From contig OY970192.1 in the NCBI GenBank assembly GCA_963708135.1, positions 1,856,001-1,920,000 of the forward strand: a stretch of DNA of 64,000 nucleotides, read 5' to 3'. The translations under genes and the position numbers were made by a program. The stretch comes from an uncultured Gemmatimonadales bacterium (GTDB lineage: Bacteria > Gemmatimonadota > Gemmatimonadetes > Longimicrobiales > RSA9). A model generated the notes under the pieces. That model was not told where the DNA came from. It searched no databases and was given only the letters and a program-made list of their open reading frames with translations. Positions 28,596-38,439 of this stretch are shown piece by piece (positions within the stretch are counted from its first letter, which is position 1; each line of letters opens with the position of its first letter).

Positions 28596-30083
28596 TCAAC
28601 GCCAGCCGCGATGGCGCCAGCCGCCGGAGGAGGTGCCGCCGGCGGCGATTCGGCGCACGGCGCGGCGCTGGCGTTCGTCGTGCTCGAGCAGCGCGGCGGC
28701 GAGCGCGGCGGCGGCGAGGGTATCGTCGCCGGCGGCGCGTTTCTGGAGCTCCGGGTGCTTCTCGAGGTAGCGGATGTCGATCGCGCCGGCGCGGAAGTCC
28801 GGCTCTCGCATGACGCGGCGGTGGAACGGCGCGCTGGTCTCGACGCCGACGACGCGCAGCTCGGCGAGGGCGCGCTCCATGCGCGCGATGGCGCGTTCGC
28901 GGTCGGGCGCGTGCACGATGAGCTTGGCGAGCATCGGGTCGTAGAAGAGGGACACCTCGTATCCCTCGGCGATGCCGCCGTCCCAGCGCACGCCCGGCCC
29001 GCCCGGGGTGTTGAGCAGCTCGATGCGGCCGGTGGACGGCATGAACTGGTTGTCCGGGTCCTCGCTCGTGATGCGGCACTCGATGGCGTGTCCGGAAAGG
29101 CGGACCGCGTCCTGCCCGAAGGGCAGTGCCTCGCCGCCCGCGATGCGGAGCTGCCACTGCACGAGGTCCAGGCCGGTCACCAGCTCCGTGACCGGATGCT
29201 CGACCTGGATGCGGGTGTTCATCTCGAGGAAGTAGAAGGCGCCATCCTGGAAGAGGAACTCGATGGTGCCGGCGTTCTCATAGCCCACGGCGGCCGCCGC
29301 GGCCACGGCGGCCGCGCCCATCTCAGCGCGCAGCTCGCGTGTGAGCGCGGGGGAGGGCGCCTCCTCCACCATCTTCTGGTGCCTGCGCTGGATCGAGCAC
29401 TCGCGCTCCCCCAGGTGCAGGGTCGTGCCGTGGCGGTCGGCGAGTACCTGGATCTCGATGTGGCGCGGCCCATCGAGGTACTTCTCCACGTAGACGCTGC
29501 CGTCGCCGAAGGACTGCAGCGCCTCGTGCGCCGCCGACTCGAACGCGCGCGCCACCTCCTCCGGGCCCCGCACGACGCGCATCCCCTTGCCGCCCCCGCC
29601 GGCCGCCGCCTTCAGCAGCACGGGGAACCCGATCTCCGCCGCGGCGCTCGCCGCCTCCTTCGCATCGGCCAGCGCCCGCGCCGTCCCCGGGACCACCGGC
29701 ACACCCGCCGCCATCATGCGCCGGCGCGCCTCCGTCTTGTCGCCCATTGCCTCGATCGCCTCCGGCGACGGGCCCACGAAGGTGAGCCCGGCGTCGCGCA
29801 CCGCCGCGGCGAAGGGAGCGCGCTCGGCCAGGAAGCCGTAGCCGGGATGCACCGCGTCGCAGCCCGCGGCCAGCGCCACCTCGAGCAGCCGCTCGATCCG
29901 GAGATAGGAGCGCGCCGACGGCGCCGGGCCGATCGGGAACGCCTCGTCCGCCTCGAGCACGTGCGGCGCCACGCGGTCCGCGTCGGAATAGACGGCCACG
30001 GCCGTCATGCCCATCTCGCGGCAGGCGCGGATCACGCGCACGGCGATCTCGCCGCGGTTGGCGACGAGCACCTTGCGCAGCAT
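28596..30083 (-). CDS. accC: Biotin carboxylase subunit of an acyl-CoA carboxylase
   Basis: ANRGEIA, HPGYGFLAE, GGGGKGMR, ECSIQRRHQK, EMNTRIQVEH. Confidence 0.93.
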   Translation of the reverse strand: MLRKVLVANRGEIAVRVIRACREMGMTAVAVYSDADRVAPHVLEADEAFPIGPAPSARSYLRIERLLEVALAAGCDAVHPGYGFLAERAPFAAAVRDAGLTFVGPSPEAIEAMGDKTEARRRMMAAGVPVVPGTARALADAKEAASAAAEIGFPVLLKAAAGGGGKGMRVVRGPEEVARAFESAAHEALQSFGDGSVYVEKYLDGPRHIEIQVLADRHGTTLHLGERECSIQRRHQKMVEEAPSPALTRELRAEMGAAAVAAAAAVGYENAGTIEFLFQDGAFYFLEMNTRIQVEHPVTELVTGLDLVQWQLRIAGGEALPFGQDAVRLSGHAIECRITSEDPDNQFMPSTGRIELLNTPGGPGVRWDGGIAEGYEVSLFYDPMLAKLIVHAPDRERAIARMERALAELRVVGVETSAPFHRRVMREPDFRAGAIDIRYLEKHPELQKRAAGDDTLAAAALAAALLEHDERQRRAVRRIAAGGTSSGGWRHRGWR

Positions 30084-30868
30084 CAGTGGTCGCCGCCCAG
30101 AATCTCGCCGAGGATCGCGCCCGCGGCCGCGGCGCCGCCCAGCTTGCCGATCCCGCCGCGCGCCTCGTCCTTGCTCCCGAACCTGGCCGCCGCGATGATC
30201 CGGTCCGCCAGCCTCGAGAACGGCAGGCTCTGCAGGTACACGAGCCCCGGGCCGGTGAGCGTCGCCAGGAACAGCCCTTCCCCGCCGAACAGCGCGTTGC
30301 GGAACCCGCCCACGAAGTTGATGTCGTAATCCACGGACGGCGCGAACGCCACCAGGCACCCCGTGTCCACGCGCAGCACCTCGCCGGGCGCGAGCTGCCG
30401 CTCCATGATCGTGCCGCCCGCGTGCGCGAATGCCAGGCCGCTGCCCGTCAGGCGCTGGAGGATGAAGCCTTCACCGCCGAACAGCCCGGCGCCGAGCCGC
30501 TTCGTGAAGGCGACCTCGATCTCCACGCCGGACGCGGCGCACAGGAAGCTGTCCTTCTGACAGATGAACGACCCGCCCAGCCGGGCCAGGTCGAGCGGCA
30601 CGATCTTGCCCGGGTACGGCGCCGCGAACCCGACGTGCCCCTTGCCCGCGCCGTTCTGCTTGAAGGTCGTAATGAAGAAGCTCGAGCCGGTCAGCATCCG
30701 CTTGAACCCCTTGAACATGCCGCCGCCCGTGGACGTCTGCATCTCGATTCCCTGCTCCATGTAGAGCATGGCGCCCACCTCCGCGCGCACGCCCTCGCCG
30801 GGGTCGAGCTCGACCTCCACGACCTGCATTTCCTCGCCGATGATCTTGTAGTCGATGATGTCGGCCAT
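30083..30868 (-). CDS. TIGR00266/AIM24 family protein
   Basis: [43 protein letters not shown]. Confidence 0.92.
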
Positions 30869-30983
30869 GGCAGTGCTCACGTGTTGGAGAGGAGTCGGGG
30901 GATGAAATCCGCGCTCATTCGAGCCCGTCCGGTCAGAGGATCGCAAGGGTTCAGGCCCAGTCGGACGCAACGCGTTCGCGGTA

Positions 30984-31517
30984 TCAGCCGGACCCGACCG
31001 CGCGCTCGACGACGGTGATGTCGCGTTCCGACAGACCGTAGAGGCGGTACACGATGCGATCGATGAGCCTATCCGTCAGCTCGAGCTGGCGCAGCAGCGG
31101 TCGGAGTCTTCCCATGCTGACCTCGTATGCTTTCTCGACCCGTTCGCGCGCAGGATTCCTCGCTCTGTACCCCTTTGGCTTCGAGACGTCCAGGCGAGCG
31201 ACCCTCGGATGGTTGCGCCGGATGACCTCGAGCAGCTTCGTCGCGTCCGCCTGCTCATAATACGATTCCACATAGGTTTTCCCGCTCAGATCGTCCACCC
31301 GGCAGCCGATCTGCTCCTCGAGCCAAGCCAGGAAGGAGTGCACCTCTACCTGGCGCAGCTCATGCAGCTCCGTCATCCGGCGCGCCAGAAACGCCAGCAG
31401 GTCCCGCACGACGTCCGCGCGTTCGCGCTCGAGGTCGGGGCGGCCCTCCGCATCGAGCGGCAGAAGCCACTCGATCTGAGCGAGCAGGTCATCGAACGGG
31501 AACGCGACGTCGCTCAC
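30984..31517 (-). CDS. Stand-alone C-terminal helical domain of a type IIG R-M enzyme
   Basis: [14 protein letters not shown]...FLAWLE...DDLSGKT...[24 protein letters not shown] matches the typical type IIG C-terminus (IDxxVYxLYGLxxEEIxxVE). GTG overlaps the HEPN stop, with a GGAGG RBS. Confidence 0.8.
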
Positions 31518-31903
31518 CCCATCCTCCCCTCGACTCTTTCCACGACCTCGCGCGCAAGCCCCACGGCGCGGGTTGCTTCGTCCTCGCCGTACTCGACCCC
31601 TCCCGGGTAACGAGGCTCCACGGCATACGGGGTCAGCACCGACGCGGCCGGCTCCAGATCGGGCAAAGCCGTACCGGCGGCGCGCAGGCGGTCGAGCAGC
31701 ACCGAAAGGTCGTGCGTAGGCACCGCCGGCGCGCCGGTTTCGTGGACGACAAGCGCCTTCAGCGCCTTCTCCGCTGCCTGCTGCGCGTGATAGACGGCCA
31801 GCCACGGGTGGGCCGGCTCGGCTTCCGCCGCCGTCCCGGCCGCCCACAGGTCGTCCCGGGCGCGCTCGAGCCAGGCGCGCGCGGGCTGTTCAGCTTCCGT
31901 CAT
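31514..31903 (-). CDS. HEPN domain protein (MNT-associated type)
   Basis: WLERARDDL..A, YHAQQAAEKALKA, THDL, YAVEPRYP; 129 aa. Confidence 0.9.
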   Translation of the reverse strand: MTEAEQPARAWLERARDDLWAAGTAAEAEPAHPWLAVYHAQQAAEKALKALVVHETGAPAVPTHDLSVLLDRLRAAGTALPDLEPAASVLTPYAVEPRYPGGVEYGEDEATRAVGLAREVVERVEGRMG

Positions 31904-34900
31904 CCAGGCGCACTCCTTCCTCGAGCACGTGTCCCACGAAACTGCCGGGCACCGCCCGCCACCGCTCGATCTCCGCGGGCGTGTAGACGTGCAGGTCAAC
32001 CGGTCGCGGCGCGCCCGCAAGTCGCTCGCGGATCCGCTCCCGCCAGGCCGCCTTGCCGCCGTCCGGCTGCACCACCACCAGCAGGTCCAGATCGCTGTCC
32101 GGCCGCGGGTGGCCCCGCCCCCACGAGCCGATCAGTCGCACCTCCTCCACGCCCTTCAGCGCGCCGATCCGCGCACCGAGCTCGCGGATCTCTTCGGGGA
32201 CCTCCGGCTCGATGCCCGCCTTGCGCAGCCCGCGATAATACAGCCCCTCCAGCCACCGGCCGAGCTCCTGGCGGGTGCGCTCGGGGGTGCGCTCGGCGAC
32301 CTGCCTGATCGGCACGCGCTCCATGTACTGGGCGCGCAGCTCGATGTACGCATCCGAGCCAGCCGGTCCCTCCAGCCGAGCGGCCGCGTTCCGCAGATAG
32401 AAGAAGCAGAGACGGCTGTTCAGGAGCGCGAGCACCGATCCATCGTCCGTGGCGAGAACGAAGCACTTATCGTTGACGAAGCGGCCGCCCTTGTCGAGAC
32501 CGAACCGTGGCTCCCTCGTGATGATCGGATAAACGATCTTCGGCCGTTCGTAGATGTTCCGAAACGCTTTCTGCGGCTGCTGCAGCTCATACCAGGCCTG
32601 CTCCGTCGCGCGCCTCTCGAGCCGCTCCCGGAACGGCGCGAGGTGCGCTTCCACGGCCGGGTACCGGCGGATGTCCACCCCGTGCGGCAAGTACAGCAGC
32701 CAGCGGTCGGCGCTGCGGATGTGGTAATGCCGGACGTCGTCGCCAATGACCAGCGGCTTGATCACCTCGGCCGAGCGCGCGTCCTCCGCGATCAGGCGTT
32801 CACGGGTGGCTCGATCGATCCAGAACGCCTCATTCAGACCGGTCTTGATTCCCCAGCAGATCCCGCTTGGGAGCATCTTTCCGAGTGGCTCACCAAGCGC
32901 CGGCAGTCGCGCCAGGATCTCGGCCGTACGCCTGTCAACGAGCTGCCATTCCTCACCCGCGAGAGTCCCAGGATTCAACTCGAACGCGGCCTTCTCGACG
33001 GCGATTCGCAAGTCATCGAACTCGCCCAGCTCGGCGAAGCGGGCGGGCACGGCCGCGCCGCCCTTGCGGACGAAGACGAGCGCGGGCCGGACGGTAGCCT
33101 CGGGGAACACGCCCGATCCGGCGAAGTCCACGATCTCCCTGACCCGTCCGATTCGACCGATCAGCCCGCGCAGCTTCTTGCCGTAATTCGCGCGCAGGAA
33201 CTTGTTCGAGACGATCGCCCCGTACTCGCCGCCGTCGCGGAGCAGCTCGAGCGAGCGCTCGATGAAGTAGACGTACAGGTCGCTGCGGGTGGCGTAGGTC
33301 TCGTATTCCTGGCGGAGGAAGTCCTTGATCCCCTTGAACTCCTCCATACGCACGTAGGGCGGATTGCCCATCACCGCGTCGAAACCGGGACGCTCGAGCC
33401 GGTGTCCGGTCTCCGCGTCGTGGAAAGCCTCCCCGAACTCGACCTCCCAGTGGAAGAAGACGTGCTTCGCGCGGAGGCGCGCGAGCGCTTCGGCGTCCAC
33501 GATGGCCGAGGCCTCCCCCCACTGCTGCCGGTCCGATTTGAGGGCGCCGAGCAGCGCCGCATACCTGTCCTCGTCGATCGACAGGCCGAAGAACGTGGCG
33601 CACCAGACATCGCCCACGAAACGCGCGCGATCGAGGAGCCGGTCGGCTTCGGCCAGCAGTTTCTTCTTGAGCGCGACGTCGCGCAGCGAGTCGGTGGCCG
33701 TCGCCTCGATCTGGCGCGTCATGCCGACGGCCTGGCGGAGCGCGAGCGCGAGGGCGTCCCCGAAGGCGTTGTACTGGCCCGCTGCCTCGAGCCGGGCCGC
33801 CTTGCCCCTTGCCGGCGGTCGGCTCATCCGTTCGATGCGCCCGCCGAGCAGGGAGTCGCCGACCTTCAGGTGATGGTCCAGGAAGTTCAGCGGCTTGTTC
33901 TTCTCGACTGTCGCGAGCCAAAGCGACAGCTTCGCCAGCTCGACGGCGCGCGGGTTCCTGTCGACGCCGAAGATGCAGCGCTCGACCACCAGCCTTCCGA
34001 CGTGCTCCGGATCGAGGTGGGCGAGCTCGCCAAGTGATCCCTGGTCGTCCGCATCGACAGCCGCGACCGCGGCGCGCACGAGGTACGCCGTCGCGGCGAC
34101 GAGGAAGTGCCCGGAGCCCATCGCCGGGTCCAGTACGCGCACCGAGAGGATCTCGCCCGCGCGCCGGCGCTCGACGAGCGGTGCCAGCGTACGCTCGACA
34201 ATGTACTGGACGACGTAGTCGGGCGTGTAGTAGGAGCCGGTGACCTTGCGCTCGCCCTTGTCGTTGGCGAGGTAGACGTCGCCTTCCGGGACGGCGGTGC
34301 GGATCACGCGGCCCTTCTCCCGGATCTCCGGGAGCGTCGCGTCGGCGACGCGGAGGACATACTCGAGCAGGCCCTCGTAGACCGAGCCGAGGTGGCGCAC
34401 GTCGAGCGGGCCGTAGTCCACATAGTGGAGCGATCGCGTGTCCGGATCGGAGGCCCGAGAAAGCAGGTCGATCGCTTCGGCGAGCTGCGGGTCGGGAACG
34501 TAATGGTTCTCGAGCCAGGGATGCCGGTCCGGGTCGAACAGACCTCCGTCGTAGACGGGCAGACCGTCGAGTCTCCAATCCGGGTGCCCGTCGATGATCT
34601 GGAAGAGGTCCGCCAGATCGTTCCAGAAGTCGCGGCCGTGAGGGAAGCAAGTCTGCTCTTCGTCGCGTACGCGCTTTGCGCGCTCGCGTAGCTGCAGGAG
34701 GCTCTTGCTCCGGTAGGTCGGGTTGGTGCGCACGGGCAGGAGGTCGCGCGCTTCCGCGAAAAGCACGAACAGGAGTCTGAACAGCAGCGTGAGCGAGTTG
34801 TCGAGGATCGTGCGGCCCAGCGTCTCATCCCGCCGCAGCAACGCCGCATCCACGCCTGCGGACGCCGCGAAGCCCGCGCACAGCGCCGTGACCGCGCGGT

Positions 34901-35693
34901 AGGCACGCGGCTTGAGCTCCGCTTCGACGGCGCGCGCATAGCTCAGCGAATCGGCGCGCGCATTGTCCACCCAGCGCAGGCCGTGTTGATCCGGGCGGAA
35001 CGACGGCGGAGCGAAGAACAGGTAGAAGTAACGGAACGCCTCCTCCGCCCGGATGGTTGCGCCCTCCTCCGTGAGCGCCAGCGGCTCGTCCCCGAGCAGC
35101 GCGGCCAGATCCAGTGAGAAGTACGCCGTATCGGCGAAGTCCACGTCGCGATTGTAGAGGCGCCACTCGCGGCCGTTCGTCAGGATACCCCACGGCTGTT
35201 CCGCGCGGAAGAGGTAGTTGACGATCTGTGTGGACGGCACGCGGTTCGGCTCGAGATCGCCGGGCCCGCCGCGGGCGTCCAGGGGGCGGTCCCACCGCTT
35301 CGCTTCGAGCACGGCCAGAGCTTGCTTGAGCACCGAGCGGCGTTCTCGCCCGGCGGCGGCGCGGCGTGCATCCTCATCGGTTGCGAACAGCGCATAATCG
35401 GGGAACTGTGTCGCGCCCAGGCGCTGCGAGCGCGGTTGCACCTCGTACCCCCATCCAAGCGCCTGAAGCACCGGACGAAGCAGGTGCTCCTCCGTCTGCG
35501 CCTCATTCGCCGCGGTAAGGGTGTCGCCCTCGCGACGGTACACCTCGCGGACGCGCTCTCGCAGCGCGCGCGCGGCGCCGGCGCACTCATCCCACTGGCG
35601 GTCTCTCCGCAGGCGCGTCTCGAGGAAGTGGTTCGAGAAGAGCTGCCGATTGCCGTAGGCTGGTGCGAACTGGAGCTCAGCGTGATTGGTCAT
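31890..35693 (-). CDS. Type IIG restriction enzyme/N6-adenine methyltransferase (Eco57I-like) with a C-terminal fused minimal nucleotidyltransferase
   Basis: PD...EAK nuclease (FPDYALF...VLEAKRW), WGILTNGREWRLY, GSYYTP, VLDPAMGSGHFL, GNPPY, TaqI-C-like TRD (GIKTG, WYELQ, PKIVYP). The last ~100 aa are MNT-like: LIGSWGRGHPRPDSDLDLLVV...VDLHVYTPAE. Confidence 0.9.
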   Translation of the reverse strand: MTNHAELQFAPAYGNRQLFSNHFLETRLRRDRQWDECAGAARALRERVREVYRREGDTLTAANEAQTEEHLLRPVLQALGWGYEVQPRSQRLGATQFPDYALFATDEDARRAAAGRERRSVLKQALAVLEAKRWDRPLDARGGPGDLEPNRVPSTQIVNYLFRAEQPWGILTNGREWRLYNRDVDFADTAYFSLDLAALLGDEPLALTEEGATIRAEEAFRYFYLFFAPPSFRPDQHGLRWVDNARADSLSYARAVEAELKPRAYRAVTALCAGFAASAGVDAALLRRDETLGRTILDNSLTLLFRLLFVLFAEARDLLPVRTNPTYRSKSLLQLRERAKRVRDEEQTCFPHGRDFWNDLADLFQIIDGHPDWRLDGLPVYDGGLFDPDRHPWLENHYVPDPQLAEAIDLLSRASDPDTRSLHYVDYGPLDVRHLGSVYEGLLEYVLRVADATLPEIREKGRVIRTAVPEGDVYLANDKGERKVTGSYYTPDYVVQYIVERTLAPLVERRRAGEILSVRVLDPAMGSGHFLVAATAYLVRAAVAAVDADDQGSLGELAHLDPEHVGRLVVERCIFGVDRNPRAVELAKLSLWLATVEKNKPLNFLDHHLKVGDSLLGGRIERMSRPPARGKAARLEAAGQYNAFGDALALALRQAVGMTRQIEATATDSLRDVALKKKLLAEADRLLDRARFVGDVWCATFFGLSIDEDRYAALLGALKSDRQQWGEASAIVDAEALARLRAKHVFFHWEVEFGEAFHDAETGHRLERPGFDAVMGNPPYVRMEEFKGIKDFLRQEYETYATRSDLYVYFIERSLELLRDGGEYGAIVSNKFLRANYGKKLRGLIGRIGRVREIVDFAGSGVFPEATVRPALVFVRKGGAAVPARFAELGEFDDLRIAVEKAAFELNPGTLAGEEWQLVDRRTAEILARLPALGEPLGKMLPSGICWGIKTGLNEAFWIDRATRERLIAEDARSAEVIKPLVIGDDVRHYHIRSADRWLLYLPHGVDIRRYPAVEAHLAPFRERLERRATEQAWYELQQPQKAFRNIYERPKIVYPIITREPRFGLDKGGRFVNDKCFVLATDDGSVLALLNSRLCFFYLRNAAARLEGPAGSDAYIELRAQYMERVPIRQVAERTPERTRQELGRWLEGLYYRGLRKAGIEPEVPEEIRELGARIGALKGVEEVRLIGSWGRGHPRPDSDLDLLVVVQPDGGKAAWRERIRERLAGAPRPVDLHVYTPAEIERWRAVPGSFVGHVLEEGVRLDDGS

Positions 35694-35696
35694 CGG

Positions 35697-37244
35697 CTAC
35701 AACGGCATGTTCCCATGCTTCTTCCACGGGTTCTCGTCCCGCTTGCTCTGCAGCATGTCGAGCGCGTTGATCAGGCGGGGCCGGGTCTGGCGCGGGTCGA
35801 TGACATCATCGACGTAGCCGCGGCCGGCCGCGATGTAGGGGTTGGCGAAGCGCTCGCGGTACTCCCGCTCCCTCTCCCGGGTGGCGGCCTCGCGATCCTC
35901 CGCTTCCGCGATCTCCTTGTGGTACAGGATCTCGACCGCGCCCTTCGGCCCCATGACGGCGATCTCGGCGGTGGGCCAGGCCAGGTTGACGTCGCCACGG
36001 ATGTGCTTGGAGTTCATCACGTCGTACGCGCCGCCGTACGCCTTGCGCGTGATCACCGTGATGCGCGGCACCGTGGCCTCGCAGAAGGCGAAGAGAAGCT
36101 TGGCACCGTGCTTGATGATGCCGCCGTGCTCCTGCGCGACGCCCGGCAGGAATCCCGGCACGTCCTCGAAGACGACGAGCGGTATGTTGAAGGCGTCGCA
36201 GAAGCGGACGAAGCGGGCTCCCTTCAGCGAGCTGTTGATGTCCAGCACGCCCGCCAGCACGGCCGGCTGGTTCGCCACGATGCCCACCGCGTGCCCGCCC
36301 AGGTGGGCGAATCCCACGAGGATGTTGCCGGCGTACGCGGCGTGGACCTCGTAGAACTCGCCATCGTCCACCACCCGCCCGATCACGTCGTGCATGTCGT
36401 AGGGCCGGCTCGGCTCGTCCGGCACCACGTCGAGGAGCGCCTCGTCCGCGCGGTCGAAGGGGTCCGCTGTCTCGCGCCGGGGCGGGTCTTCCCGGTTGTT
36501 CTGCGGGATGAAGCGGAAGAGGCCCCGGATCGACTCCAGGCACTCGAGCTCGCTGTCGAACGCGAAGTGGGCGACACCGGACGTGCCCGCGTGAACGTCC
36601 GCGCCGCCGAGCCCCTCCATGTCGATGTCCTCGTGCGTGACCGTCTTCACCACGTTCGGGCCGGTCACGAACATGTAGCTGGTGCCGCGCACCATGTAGA
36701 TGAAGTCCGTGATGGCCGGGGAGTAGACCGCGCCGCCCGCGCACGGCCCGAGCACGGCGCTGATCTGCGGCACCACGCCCGAGGCGAGGGTGTTGCGGAG
36801 GAAGATGTCGGCGTAGCCGCCGAGCGAGACCACGCCCTCCTGGATGCGCGCGCCGCCCGAGTCGTTCAGGCCAATGAGCGGCGCTCCGATCTTCAGCGCC
36901 ATGTCCATGAGCTTCACGATCTTGGCCGCGTGCGCCTCCGAGAGCGAACCGCCGTACACCGTGAAATCCTGGCTGAACACGTAGACGAGTCGGGCGTGAA
37001 TGGTGCCGTAGCCGGCGACGACACCGTCGCCGAGGAACCGCTCGTCCTCCTCGCCCGCCGCGCCGCGGCCGACCGCGAAGCGGTCCAACTCCACGAAGCT
37101 GCCCTCGTCGAGCAGCAGGTCGAGCCGCTCGCGGGCGGACAGCTTGCCCCGCCGATGCTGCGCCGCGAGCCGCCTCTCGCCGCCGCCCCGCTCCGCGCGC
37201 TGGCGCAGCTCGTCCAGCTGCCGGAGCCGCTCCCGCATGTCCAT
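35697..37244 (-). CDS. pccB: Propionyl-CoA carboxylase beta (carboxyltransferase) subunit
   Basis: [46 protein letters not shown]. Confidence 0.93.
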
Positions 37245-37245
37245 G

Positions 37246-38439
37246 TCAGCGCCCCTTCCCCGCATCCCCCGATGTGGTGTCCGCCTGCTCCAGCGTCACG
37301 AGCTTGCCGCCCTCGATGCGGACGATGAACGGCCGGCGCACCACGGCGCCGTCCCGCAGCGAGAGAATGCCCGTCGCCCCTTCGAGGTCCCGCTCCCGGC
37401 CGAGGCGCCGCGCCACTTCGCGCGCGCCGCCGCCACCCTCGAGCGCCTGGAGCACCATGCGTGTGGCGTCGAAGCCGAGCGCCGGGAACGGGTTGTCCAG
37501 CGACTTCCGGTACGCCGCTTCATACAACGAGACGAACCGGCTCCACGCCACGCGCGGACTCGAGCGCTGGAGCGGCGTGGCGGCGATCACGCCGTCGGTG
37601 TTCTCGGCCGGGAGCACGCGCAGCAGCTCGTCGCTCGTCCACGCCTCGCCGCCGAGGATCTGCAGCCCCTTGCCGGTGACGCCGTAATAGGCGAGCTGCG
37701 GCGCGATCTGGCGCACGTCGCGCTCCGGCGCGGGGATGAACAGCGCCTGCGCGCCCGACGCGAGCGCGCGCCGCAGCGGACGGGCGAAGGTCGTGGTGCC
37801 GGAGTCGTAGGGCAGGTCCACGACCACCCGGCCTCCGGCGCGCGCCAGCGCCAGCTCGAAGACCCGGGCCGTCCGCTGGAAGTCGGCGGAGCGCGGATAC
37901 AGCATGGCCACCCGCGGCCACCCGTGGCGCGCGGCATAGGCGGCGAGCGCCGCCGCGCCCCGCGTGTCCCCCGCGTTCAGCGAGTAGACGTTGGGCAGCC
38001 CATCGGGAACCGTCGAGGCGGTGGGGCTCACCAGCGCCAGCATGGAATCCGTCCGGGCGCGTCCCGCGGCCGTCAGGCCCGGGCTGAGCAGCGGGCCGAG
38101 CACGGCCACCGCGCCCCGCCGCTCCAACTCCTTCACCAACGCCGCGTCGCGCTCCGCATCGCCGGCATCGTCCAGCAGCACCAGATCTGGCACGAGGCCC
38201 CGCGGCGCCTCGTGCGAGAGCGCCAGACGGATCCCCTCCAGCACCAGGTCACCGTACTGCGTCAGGTACGGCGAGCCCGTGCGCGGCAGGATCGCGCCGA
38301 GCACCGGCCTCGCCGCCGCCTCCGGCGGCCGGCGCGCCGGCGGCTTTGCCGACGGAGTCCCCGACGGGCCGCTCCGCGCGCACGCGGCGACGAGCCCGAG
38401 GAGCCCTCCCAGCAGGAGGGCACGCGTCCGGATTTGCAC
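37246..38439 (-). CDS. Lipoprotein with a periplasmic-binding fold (LpoA C-domain / ABC substrate-binding-like)
   Basis: Lipobox [40 protein letters not shown]. Confidence 0.75.

Follow-up and report, generated by a model that had tools for sequence, protein, structure and literature searches.

Toxin modules are already known from the loci of restriction-modification (R-M) systems. HEPN genes of the PF05168 family cluster with R-M operons, where a guard role like that of PrrC has been proposed for them (Anantharaman et al. 2013, PMC3710099); that survey states that the partners in HEPN fusions linked to R-M are nuclease, helicase and ATPase subunits and not methylases. HEPN proteins, sometimes fused to a minimal nucleotidyltransferase (MNT), are also described as auxiliary effectors in bacteriophage exclusion (BREX) loci (PMC12839542). 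In the type VII toxin-antitoxin systems MntA is reported to oligoAMPylate HepT (PMC7641770, PMC13000451), and mobile two-gene MNT-HEPN modules (COG1708/COG2250) are reported to insert inside operons (Makarova et al. 2009, PMC2701414). Here we describe a locus in a stretch of 64,000 nucleotides (nt) from an uncultured Gemmatimonadales bacterium (GenBank assembly GCA_963708135.1, contig OY970192.1, positions 1,856,001 to 1,920,000; referred to below as the window), in which, as judged from its sequence, an MNT-HEPN cassette is nested inside a split type IIG R-M gene. The cassette lies at the surface linker that leads from the recognition domain of the enzyme to its C-terminal helical tail, and the locus encodes three translationally coupled predicted products, i.e. 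the R-M body with the MNT fused to its C terminus, a free HEPN protein, and the tail, which has its own start codon and ribosome-binding site (Table 1).

The locus resembles the HEPN-bearing R-M and BREX loci, of which PrrC-EcoprrI is the paradigm, in that it physically joins a HEPN toxin of the RNase type to a system for DNA restriction, but here it is the MNT, rather than the HEPN, that is fused to the methyltransferase-bearing R-M polypeptide, and the pair lies inside the R-M coding region, splitting the R-M gene. With type VII HepT/MntA the locus shares an MNT with a GS...DxD motif, followed with a stop/start overlap by a HEPN gene; however, the HEPN belongs to PF05168 and not to DUF86, it has no Rx4HxY motif, and the match of the MNT to the MntA model is far below the cut-off. 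A precedent for covalent fusion of an MNT to another protein is reported in FhepTA (PMC13000451), where the partner is the MNT's own HEPN toxin, whereas here it is an R-M body of 1162 residues. Like the mobile modules described by Makarova et al. (PMC2701414), the cassette is small, has the MNT before the HEPN in the same orientation, is patchy at syntenic loci and is inserted inside an operon. The modules of that account stand between genes and both of their products are free-standing; in contrast, the cassette here was inserted either inside a coding sequence or precisely at a junction of one, and its MNT, which has lost its own start, is part of a protein of 1267 amino acids (aa). In a full-text literature search, with subscription journals and REBASE lying outside it, neither the fusion of an MNT to a type IIG enzyme nor the nesting of a toxin-antitoxin pair within a split R-M gene was found described. 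This is in keeping with a preliminary description of the locus, made from the letters alone, in which the fusion was called unfamiliar among characterised type IIG enzymes. The fusion and the nesting are what this locus adds to the toxin modules already known from R-M loci.

The reading frame of the fusion is open throughout, and both junction strings, ...LEGLYYRGLRKAGIEPE and then VPEEIRELGARIGALKGVEEVRLIGSWGRGHPRPDSDLDLLVV...VDLHV...DDGS (with the stop codon directly following), are found in it. The in-frame fusion reported in the preliminary description therefore stands, as does the extent of 31890-32210 given there for the MNT, which agrees with that obtained from homology (Table 1). The public gene calls of the window's genome comprise the same three proteins, of 1267, 129 and 177 aa. 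An AAGGAG sequence at 31913-31918 is located 9 nt upstream of the HEPN ATG, and a GGAGG sequence at 31523-31527 is 5 nt upstream of the tail GTG. One part of the preliminary description had to be revised: the MNT had been taken for a C-terminal addition to a complete R-M enzyme, whereas the enzyme's own C-terminal residues, about 175 in number, lie after the HEPN gene.

Table 1. Coordinates, in the window, of the three ORFs (open reading frames), their overlaps and the neighbouring genes.
Feature	Position	Strand	Remarks
Body-MNT fusion ORF, 1267 aa	31890-35693	(-)	open without a stop throughout
Type IIG R-M body, residues 1-1162	32208-35693	(-)	predicted nuclease region, N6-adenine methyltransferase and TaqI_C
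MNT domain, residues 1163-1267	31893-32207	(-)	NTP_transf_2
Overlap of fusion stop and HEPN start, 14 nt	31890-31903	(-)	HEPN ATG 31903-31901; fusion TGA 31892-31890
HEPN ORF, 129 aa plus stop	31514-31903	(-)	PF05168
Overlap of HEPN stop and tail start, GTGA	31514-31517	(-)	tail GTG 31517-31515; HEPN TGA 31516-31514
Tail ORF, 177 aa plus stop	30984-31517	(-)	detached C-terminal helical domain of the R-M enzyme
Carboxyltransferase gene (Carboxyl_trans)	35697-37265		
AIM24 gene	30083-30870		
Biotin carboxylase gene	28596-30083		

Pfam analysis of the fusion ORF identifies Eco57I (residues 573-863, E 1.6e-35) and N6_Mtase, then TaqI_C, the target recognition domain (residues 980-1129, 37.8 bits against a cut-off of 26.5), and finally NTP_transf_2 (residues 1179-1244, E 2.2e-6, 28.4 bits against a cut-off of 21). 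Eco57I, TaqI_C and NTP_transf_2 are thus present in one ORF, the architecture for which a domain search had been proposed in the preliminary description. The REase_MTase_IIG models of PADLOC span residues 12-453 (PDLC03613) and 736-1135 of the body. Methyltransferase motifs I (DPAMGSGHF, D522-L531) and IV (NPPY, N777-P779) are invariant in all 14 aligned bodies, and a putative N-terminal PD-(D/E)xK nuclease, assigned from motifs only (FPDYALF...VLEAKRW), is found in the body and also in the consensus of the body alignment. The body chain thus has the methyltransferase motifs, the nuclease motif and the recognition domain that define a type IIG enzyme; the feature of type IIG enzymes that is lacking is a single polypeptide, the C-terminal ~175 residues being on the separate tail ORF. 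In a sequence search of the PDB the best matches were CamA, M.BseCI and M.TaqI, over body residues 768-1074, and no solved chain covered the tail or the junction. The best PADLOC match of the methyltransferase core (residues 458-832) is DrmMI of the DISARM defence system (367.7 bits); no DISARM partner gene is adjacent, the neighbours being the carboxyltransferase, AIM24 and biotin carboxylase genes. The PglX (BREX) models reached 100.7 bits, short of their cut-off of 400.

The tail ORF has no match in Pfam or NCBIfam, and it is its homologs that reveal what it is. All 19 matches to the tail among longer proteins carry an Eco57I domain, 18 of the 19 align over 78-94% of the tail, at their C-terminal ends, and these unsplit homologs are type IIG enzymes of 1250-1600 aa. 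The best match, P0001, is a single polypeptide of 1339 aa with the same domain order as the window enzyme; it is 56% identical to the body from residue 37 to residue ~1165, and its residues 1177-1338 are 51% identical to residues 8-175 of the tail. Because body and tail both match P0001, the tail ORF is the detached C terminus of the same enzyme. P0001 has a linker of about 35 residues at the cassette position, whereas the window enzyme is split at this linker, with MNT-HEPN located there. Tails that stand alone are common in this clade: free-standing homologs of the tail number 54 (97-310 aa), 21 of which are 53-74% identical to it, are 174-203 aa long and have a near-identical start point; mean column identity in the tail alignment is 57% over 24 sequences.

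The tail alone is modelled with confidence as two helices of ~37 residues each, paired in a hairpin, and a small subdomain, with a predicted local distance difference test (pLDDT) value of 89.8 and a predicted template modelling score (pTM) of 0.80; Foldseek returned no match of this model in the PDB at E <= 0.001. A modelled complex of body residues 470-1165 with the tail scored 0.81, a level reached by 116 of 157 solved complexes and by 2 of 215 mismatched pairs, compared with 0.00 for the best of three controls, although these benchmark counts hold only roughly for a model built, as this one was, on custom unpaired alignments, and the halves of a split gene tend to pass complex scoring by likeness. 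The runs agree in at least 96% of contacts, with a partner pLDDT of at least 87. On the body side the modelled interface comprises residues 922-933, 988-994 and 1065-1101, all of the recognition domain, and residues 1130-1163, i.e. the last helix, directly before the MNT; on the tail side it comprises residues 5-60 and 140-174. The model supports the view that the two enzyme pieces still fit together, binding in the cell going beyond it, and it places the MNT on a surface loop, from which it would hang at the point where the chain of the unsplit relatives crosses from body to tail.

Taken together, the results are best explained, in our view probably, albeit with considerable room for error, by a nested cassette in an enzyme that is split and in which the MNT holds the HEPN off until loss of the R-M system frees it. 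In such a mechanism the three ORFs would be translated as a coupled unit, and the tail would re-associate with the body to give an active split type IIG enzyme. The fused MNT would neutralise the HEPN RNase by binding and/or by nucleotidylation, by analogy with the action of MntA on HepT. Since the antitoxin belongs to the R-M polypeptide, the HEPN would be harmless only while the R-M body is made and intact. If the locus were lost or deleted, or if the enzyme were destroyed or blocked in the course of an attack by phage, the HEPN would be set free and growth would stop, such that the pair may stabilise the R-M locus and/or provide an abortive-infection back-up, following the logic of PrrC/EcoprrI. 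A further step, which we take only tentatively and regard as open to more doubt than belief, is that MNT and HEPN form an integral, selected pair of subunits of a three-chain restriction enzyme, with the antitoxin built into the R-M polypeptide.

The proposed mechanism depends on the MNT being both intact and made as part of the enzyme. The G-S and D-x-D motif is present as G1189-S1190...D1201-x-D1203 (32085-32129), with D1233 as the third Asp, in line with the intact GS-x10-DxD motif and third Asp noted previously, and these residues are retained in all seven fusion sequences, each of which is different. Free-standing MNTs, from a library of 1.84 billion representatives, align from residue ~1163-1164 onward. 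The MNT was previously reported to have no start of its own, and this is confirmed: the window has no ATG, GTG or TTG in frame from the end of the R-M homology up to V1182, and no start codon is conserved at the body/MNT boundary in the three loci compared. The alternative that the MNT is made separately, through internal initiation or proteolytic release, so that the fusion exists at the DNA level only, might draw on the in-frame GTG codons just ahead of MNT strand 1 in these three loci, and on a database protein (P0022) called as 133 aa, which consists of the last body helix plus the MNT. The conserved GTG, if used as a start, would however cost the MNT its first helix, and it is not preceded by a Shine-Dalgarno sequence at a workable distance in the window or in a second genome (G080, below); given this and the lack of a conserved ATG, GTG or TTG at the domain boundary, we consider separate production improbable. 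P0022, which is from a 46-kb contig, has the last ~30 residues of an R-M body before its MNT, and it may be either a separate-gene variant of this piece or the product of an R-M gene with a break upstream. The window's own genome, a single 5.45-Mb contig, has no close paralog of the MNT, the next best match being 42% identical, and so no donor copy was found.

The HEPN partner that the preliminary description placed after the MNT is confirmed as a member of PF05168 (E 4e-22), its ATG overlapping the fusion stop; neither NCBIfam nor PADLOC has a match for it. HxQQxAEK, TH(D/E)L and RYP are retained in all six aligned cassette HEPNs. In PF05168 HEPNs the catalytic His is often placed elsewhere, according to the account of the family in PMC3710099, and the conserved THDL/THEL and RYP of the cassette HEPNs fit that description of a relocated conserved His. 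This retention of residues assigned to RNase activity in the family bears on a reading related to the suggestion in the preliminary description that the MNT could AMPylate the HEPN or the R-M protein itself. In this reading the MNT would modify the R-M protein (or the tail), as a restriction switch, and the HEPN would act as a substrate-binding helper and not as a toxin. The MNT does adjoin the predicted body-tail interface, at least in the model, and HEPN domains were, according to PMC2701414, first described as substrate-binding domains of nucleotidyltransferases; nonetheless, any such target is conjectural, and the characterised MNT-HEPN pairs are toxin-antitoxin systems. A self-modifying restriction switch is thus very improbable, and the HEPN is better viewed as the putative toxin that the fused MNT would hold in check.

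The order body-MNT, HEPN, tail was read in three genomes besides that of the window (G000). These are G018, from another genus of the same family (41 relatives searched; 56% identity over 298 aa), G080, from another family and order of the same class (401 genomes of the phylum searched; 42% identity), and G443, from a third family of the same order (401 genomes of the order searched; 49% identity with the tail as query), the HEPN of G443 being identified by motif only. The four genomes span three families, with identities of 42-60%. None of the claims made here depends on G015 or G016, two genomes that are flagged as unpublished. At every locus read, both junctions have stop/start overlaps with Shine-Dalgarno-like sites, the overlap between fusion and HEPN being 14 nt in the window, G018 and G080 and 17 nt in G443. 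A list of 14 HEPN homologs from a sequence search is incomplete, since it missed the HEPN of G018, which exists. Three further fusion-bearing proteins were found in databases, P0020 (1272 aa), P0021 (a 230-aa partial sequence) and P0022, all of which have the junction AG[IV][ED]P[ED][VI]P[ED][ED]I, as in the window; they are the only matches at E <= 1e-30 among 1101 at E <= 0.001, and the other matches of that search that were inspected are free-standing MNTs or MNTs with other N-terminal regions. Within the C-terminal 200 residues, few stretches are as well conserved as the fusion junction. A scan of genome contigs with the junction alignment returned the G018 contig only, and a scan of metagenomes one weak, unrelated-looking locus (32% identity).

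The occurrence of the same layout in divergent genomes and proteins implies that it is neither an assembly artefact nor a recently killed gene, and the fusion, first noted in one sequence, is a real architecture, recurring in G018, G080, G443, P0020, P0021 and P0022. The interrupted enzyme and the rarity of the arrangement might otherwise have suggested a decaying locus, with an R-M gene killed by insertion, or an error of sequencing or assembly. Against this, the fusion is common to four genomes and three further proteins, whose divergence excludes one shared template for the assemblies; the ORFs and catalytic motifs are all intact at 42-60% identity; and the detached tail is itself conserved to the degree given above. 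In addition, contigs of run X1, a soil metagenome, cover 31300-31907 and 32036-32471 with 0 differences (31908-32035 is uncovered), the second of them taking in the junction at 32150-32300, where a check of read coverage had been suggested, although X1 may be the source sample of the window's genome. Decay or artefact is so improbable that we give it little weight, and the layout is treated in what follows as that of an intact nested cassette.

Relatives without the cassette inform on how the split arose. In G007, from the same family, body and tail are two ORFs with a GTGA overlap and a GGAGG sequence upstream, and there is no MNT or HEPN; of the neighbouring genes G007 keeps only the upstream one, the carboxyltransferase. 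In G515 the enzyme is unsplit and without the cassette, its linker being shorter, without the helix ...WLEGLYYRGLRKAG and the start of the tail. The cassette is thus patchy, being present in the window genome, G018, G080 and G443 and not at the homologous place in G007 and G515. Three of the free-standing tails match close HEPN hits in the size of their contigs (5979, 4531 and 1493 nt), which suggests three more cassette-bearing loci. In a tree of the tails (39 rows, 183 columns; rooted at the midpoint for drawing only, with several long branches) the close split tails and the unsplit P0001 all fall in one clade (support 100/99); the rows with a known or suspected cassette are scattered over that clade, and G007 stands beside one of them. 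With only one row known to be cassette-free, the tree cannot decide between gain and loss of the cassette. The scatter in the tree and the one conserved junction jointly speak for a single insertion, after which the cassette was lost in G007. The cassette may instead have been inserted at a pre-existing junction between body and tail.

The phase of the tail ORF is that of the body-MNT ORF in the window, G080 and G443 and differs in G018; agreement in three of four is expected by chance with a probability of about 0.11. The TGA at 31890-31892 is all that stands between the frame of the tail and that of body and MNT in the window, because the alternative frame through the HEPN gene is open. The shared phase may be a trace of an in-frame insertion, or it may be due to chance, the DNA being rich in G+C. 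Read-through of this one TGA was considered but rejected, since 124 residues of the resulting protein would come from the HEPN gene read in the wrong frame.

The main rival to a functional link between toxin and enzyme is that the cassette is a selfish passenger, which landed in, or at the junction of, an R-M gene and persists by addiction, the fusion being a tolerated accident without cross-talk. We consider this rather unlikely, but it accounts for several of the observations. MNT-HEPN modules are mobile and insert inside operons (PMC2701414), G007 and G515 have the enzyme without the cassette, the layout is rare, and the guanine plus cytosine (G+C) content over MNT-HEPN (71-74%) exceeds that of the adjacent body (65-69%) and the tail (63-66%; window positions 30800-32600), itself a mild hint at a separate history of the cassette. 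A mere passenger would not, however, readily explain why the junction is so well conserved within the C-terminal 200 residues, why no stop and start have been regained in any of the seven fusions, with divergence down to 42% identity, or why translational coupling has been kept for all three ORFs.

Set against the proposal that the fused MNT restrains the HEPN, there are several points that we think should temper it. The activities of all the parts are predictions. The MNT is not an MntA equivalog (the MntA model NF047752 scores 19.5 bits, its cut-off being 60). The HEPN, being of PF05168 and without Rx4HxY, is not of the HepT/DUF86 type for which AMPylation has been shown, so that the chemistry of neutralisation is extrapolated. 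The complex of body and tail is likewise a prediction. G007 and G515, with their enzymes lacking the cassette, indicate that the enzyme does not need the pair. The layout is also rare, the tail being found in 5 of 401 genomes of the order and 2 of 401 of the class, and the fusion in 2 of 401 of the phylum, with the window's own genome counted in each case; selection for the layout is thus clearly not general. Finally, no evidence distinguishes a guard role from a tolerated selfish passenger.

Were MNT and HEPN integral subunits, restriction would be hard-wired at the protein level to an abortive-infection or addiction switch, and the locus would show that a coding sequence can take in a toxin-antitoxin cassette and still yield a functional enzyme in split form. 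The coupling of toxins to restriction elsewhere is mostly conjecture, whereas here it appears to be written into the polypeptide, the putative antitoxin domain being part of the enzyme, which makes the idea of a guard or addiction role directly testable on one three-gene operon, and one from a soil lineage that is not pathogenic. The locus also provides a rare natural case in which a gene seems to have survived when a cassette was inserted at a linker between domains, in that its product became a split protein, a state kept over long divergence. This knowledge bears on the movement of MNT-HEPN modules, as well as on the sites at which type IIG enzymes may tolerate a split or an inserted domain.

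With respect to genomic context, the gene immediately upstream of each of the four loci encodes a carboxyltransferase. In G018, G080 and G443 the next gene after the tail is one for a biotin carboxylase, whereas in the window a single AIM24 gene stands between the two. A defence gene is thus lodged within an acyl-CoA carboxylase cluster, at one and the same position in three families, yet in only about 1% of the sampled genomes.

Two further proteins with an MNT on an unexpected partner were noted. P0073 (605 aa) is a type I specificity subunit (Methylase_S, E 1.7e-25) with a C-terminal NTP_transf_2 domain at residues 507-580 (E 1.1e-14) and a second MNT-like stretch ahead of it; as judged by these domain matches it is possibly a case in which an MNT was joined independently to a specificity protein of an R-M system. 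In P0023 (287 aa), which could be a miscalled ORF, an MNT that is 56% identical to that of the window is found on an unrelated N-terminal region of 190 residues without a Pfam match.

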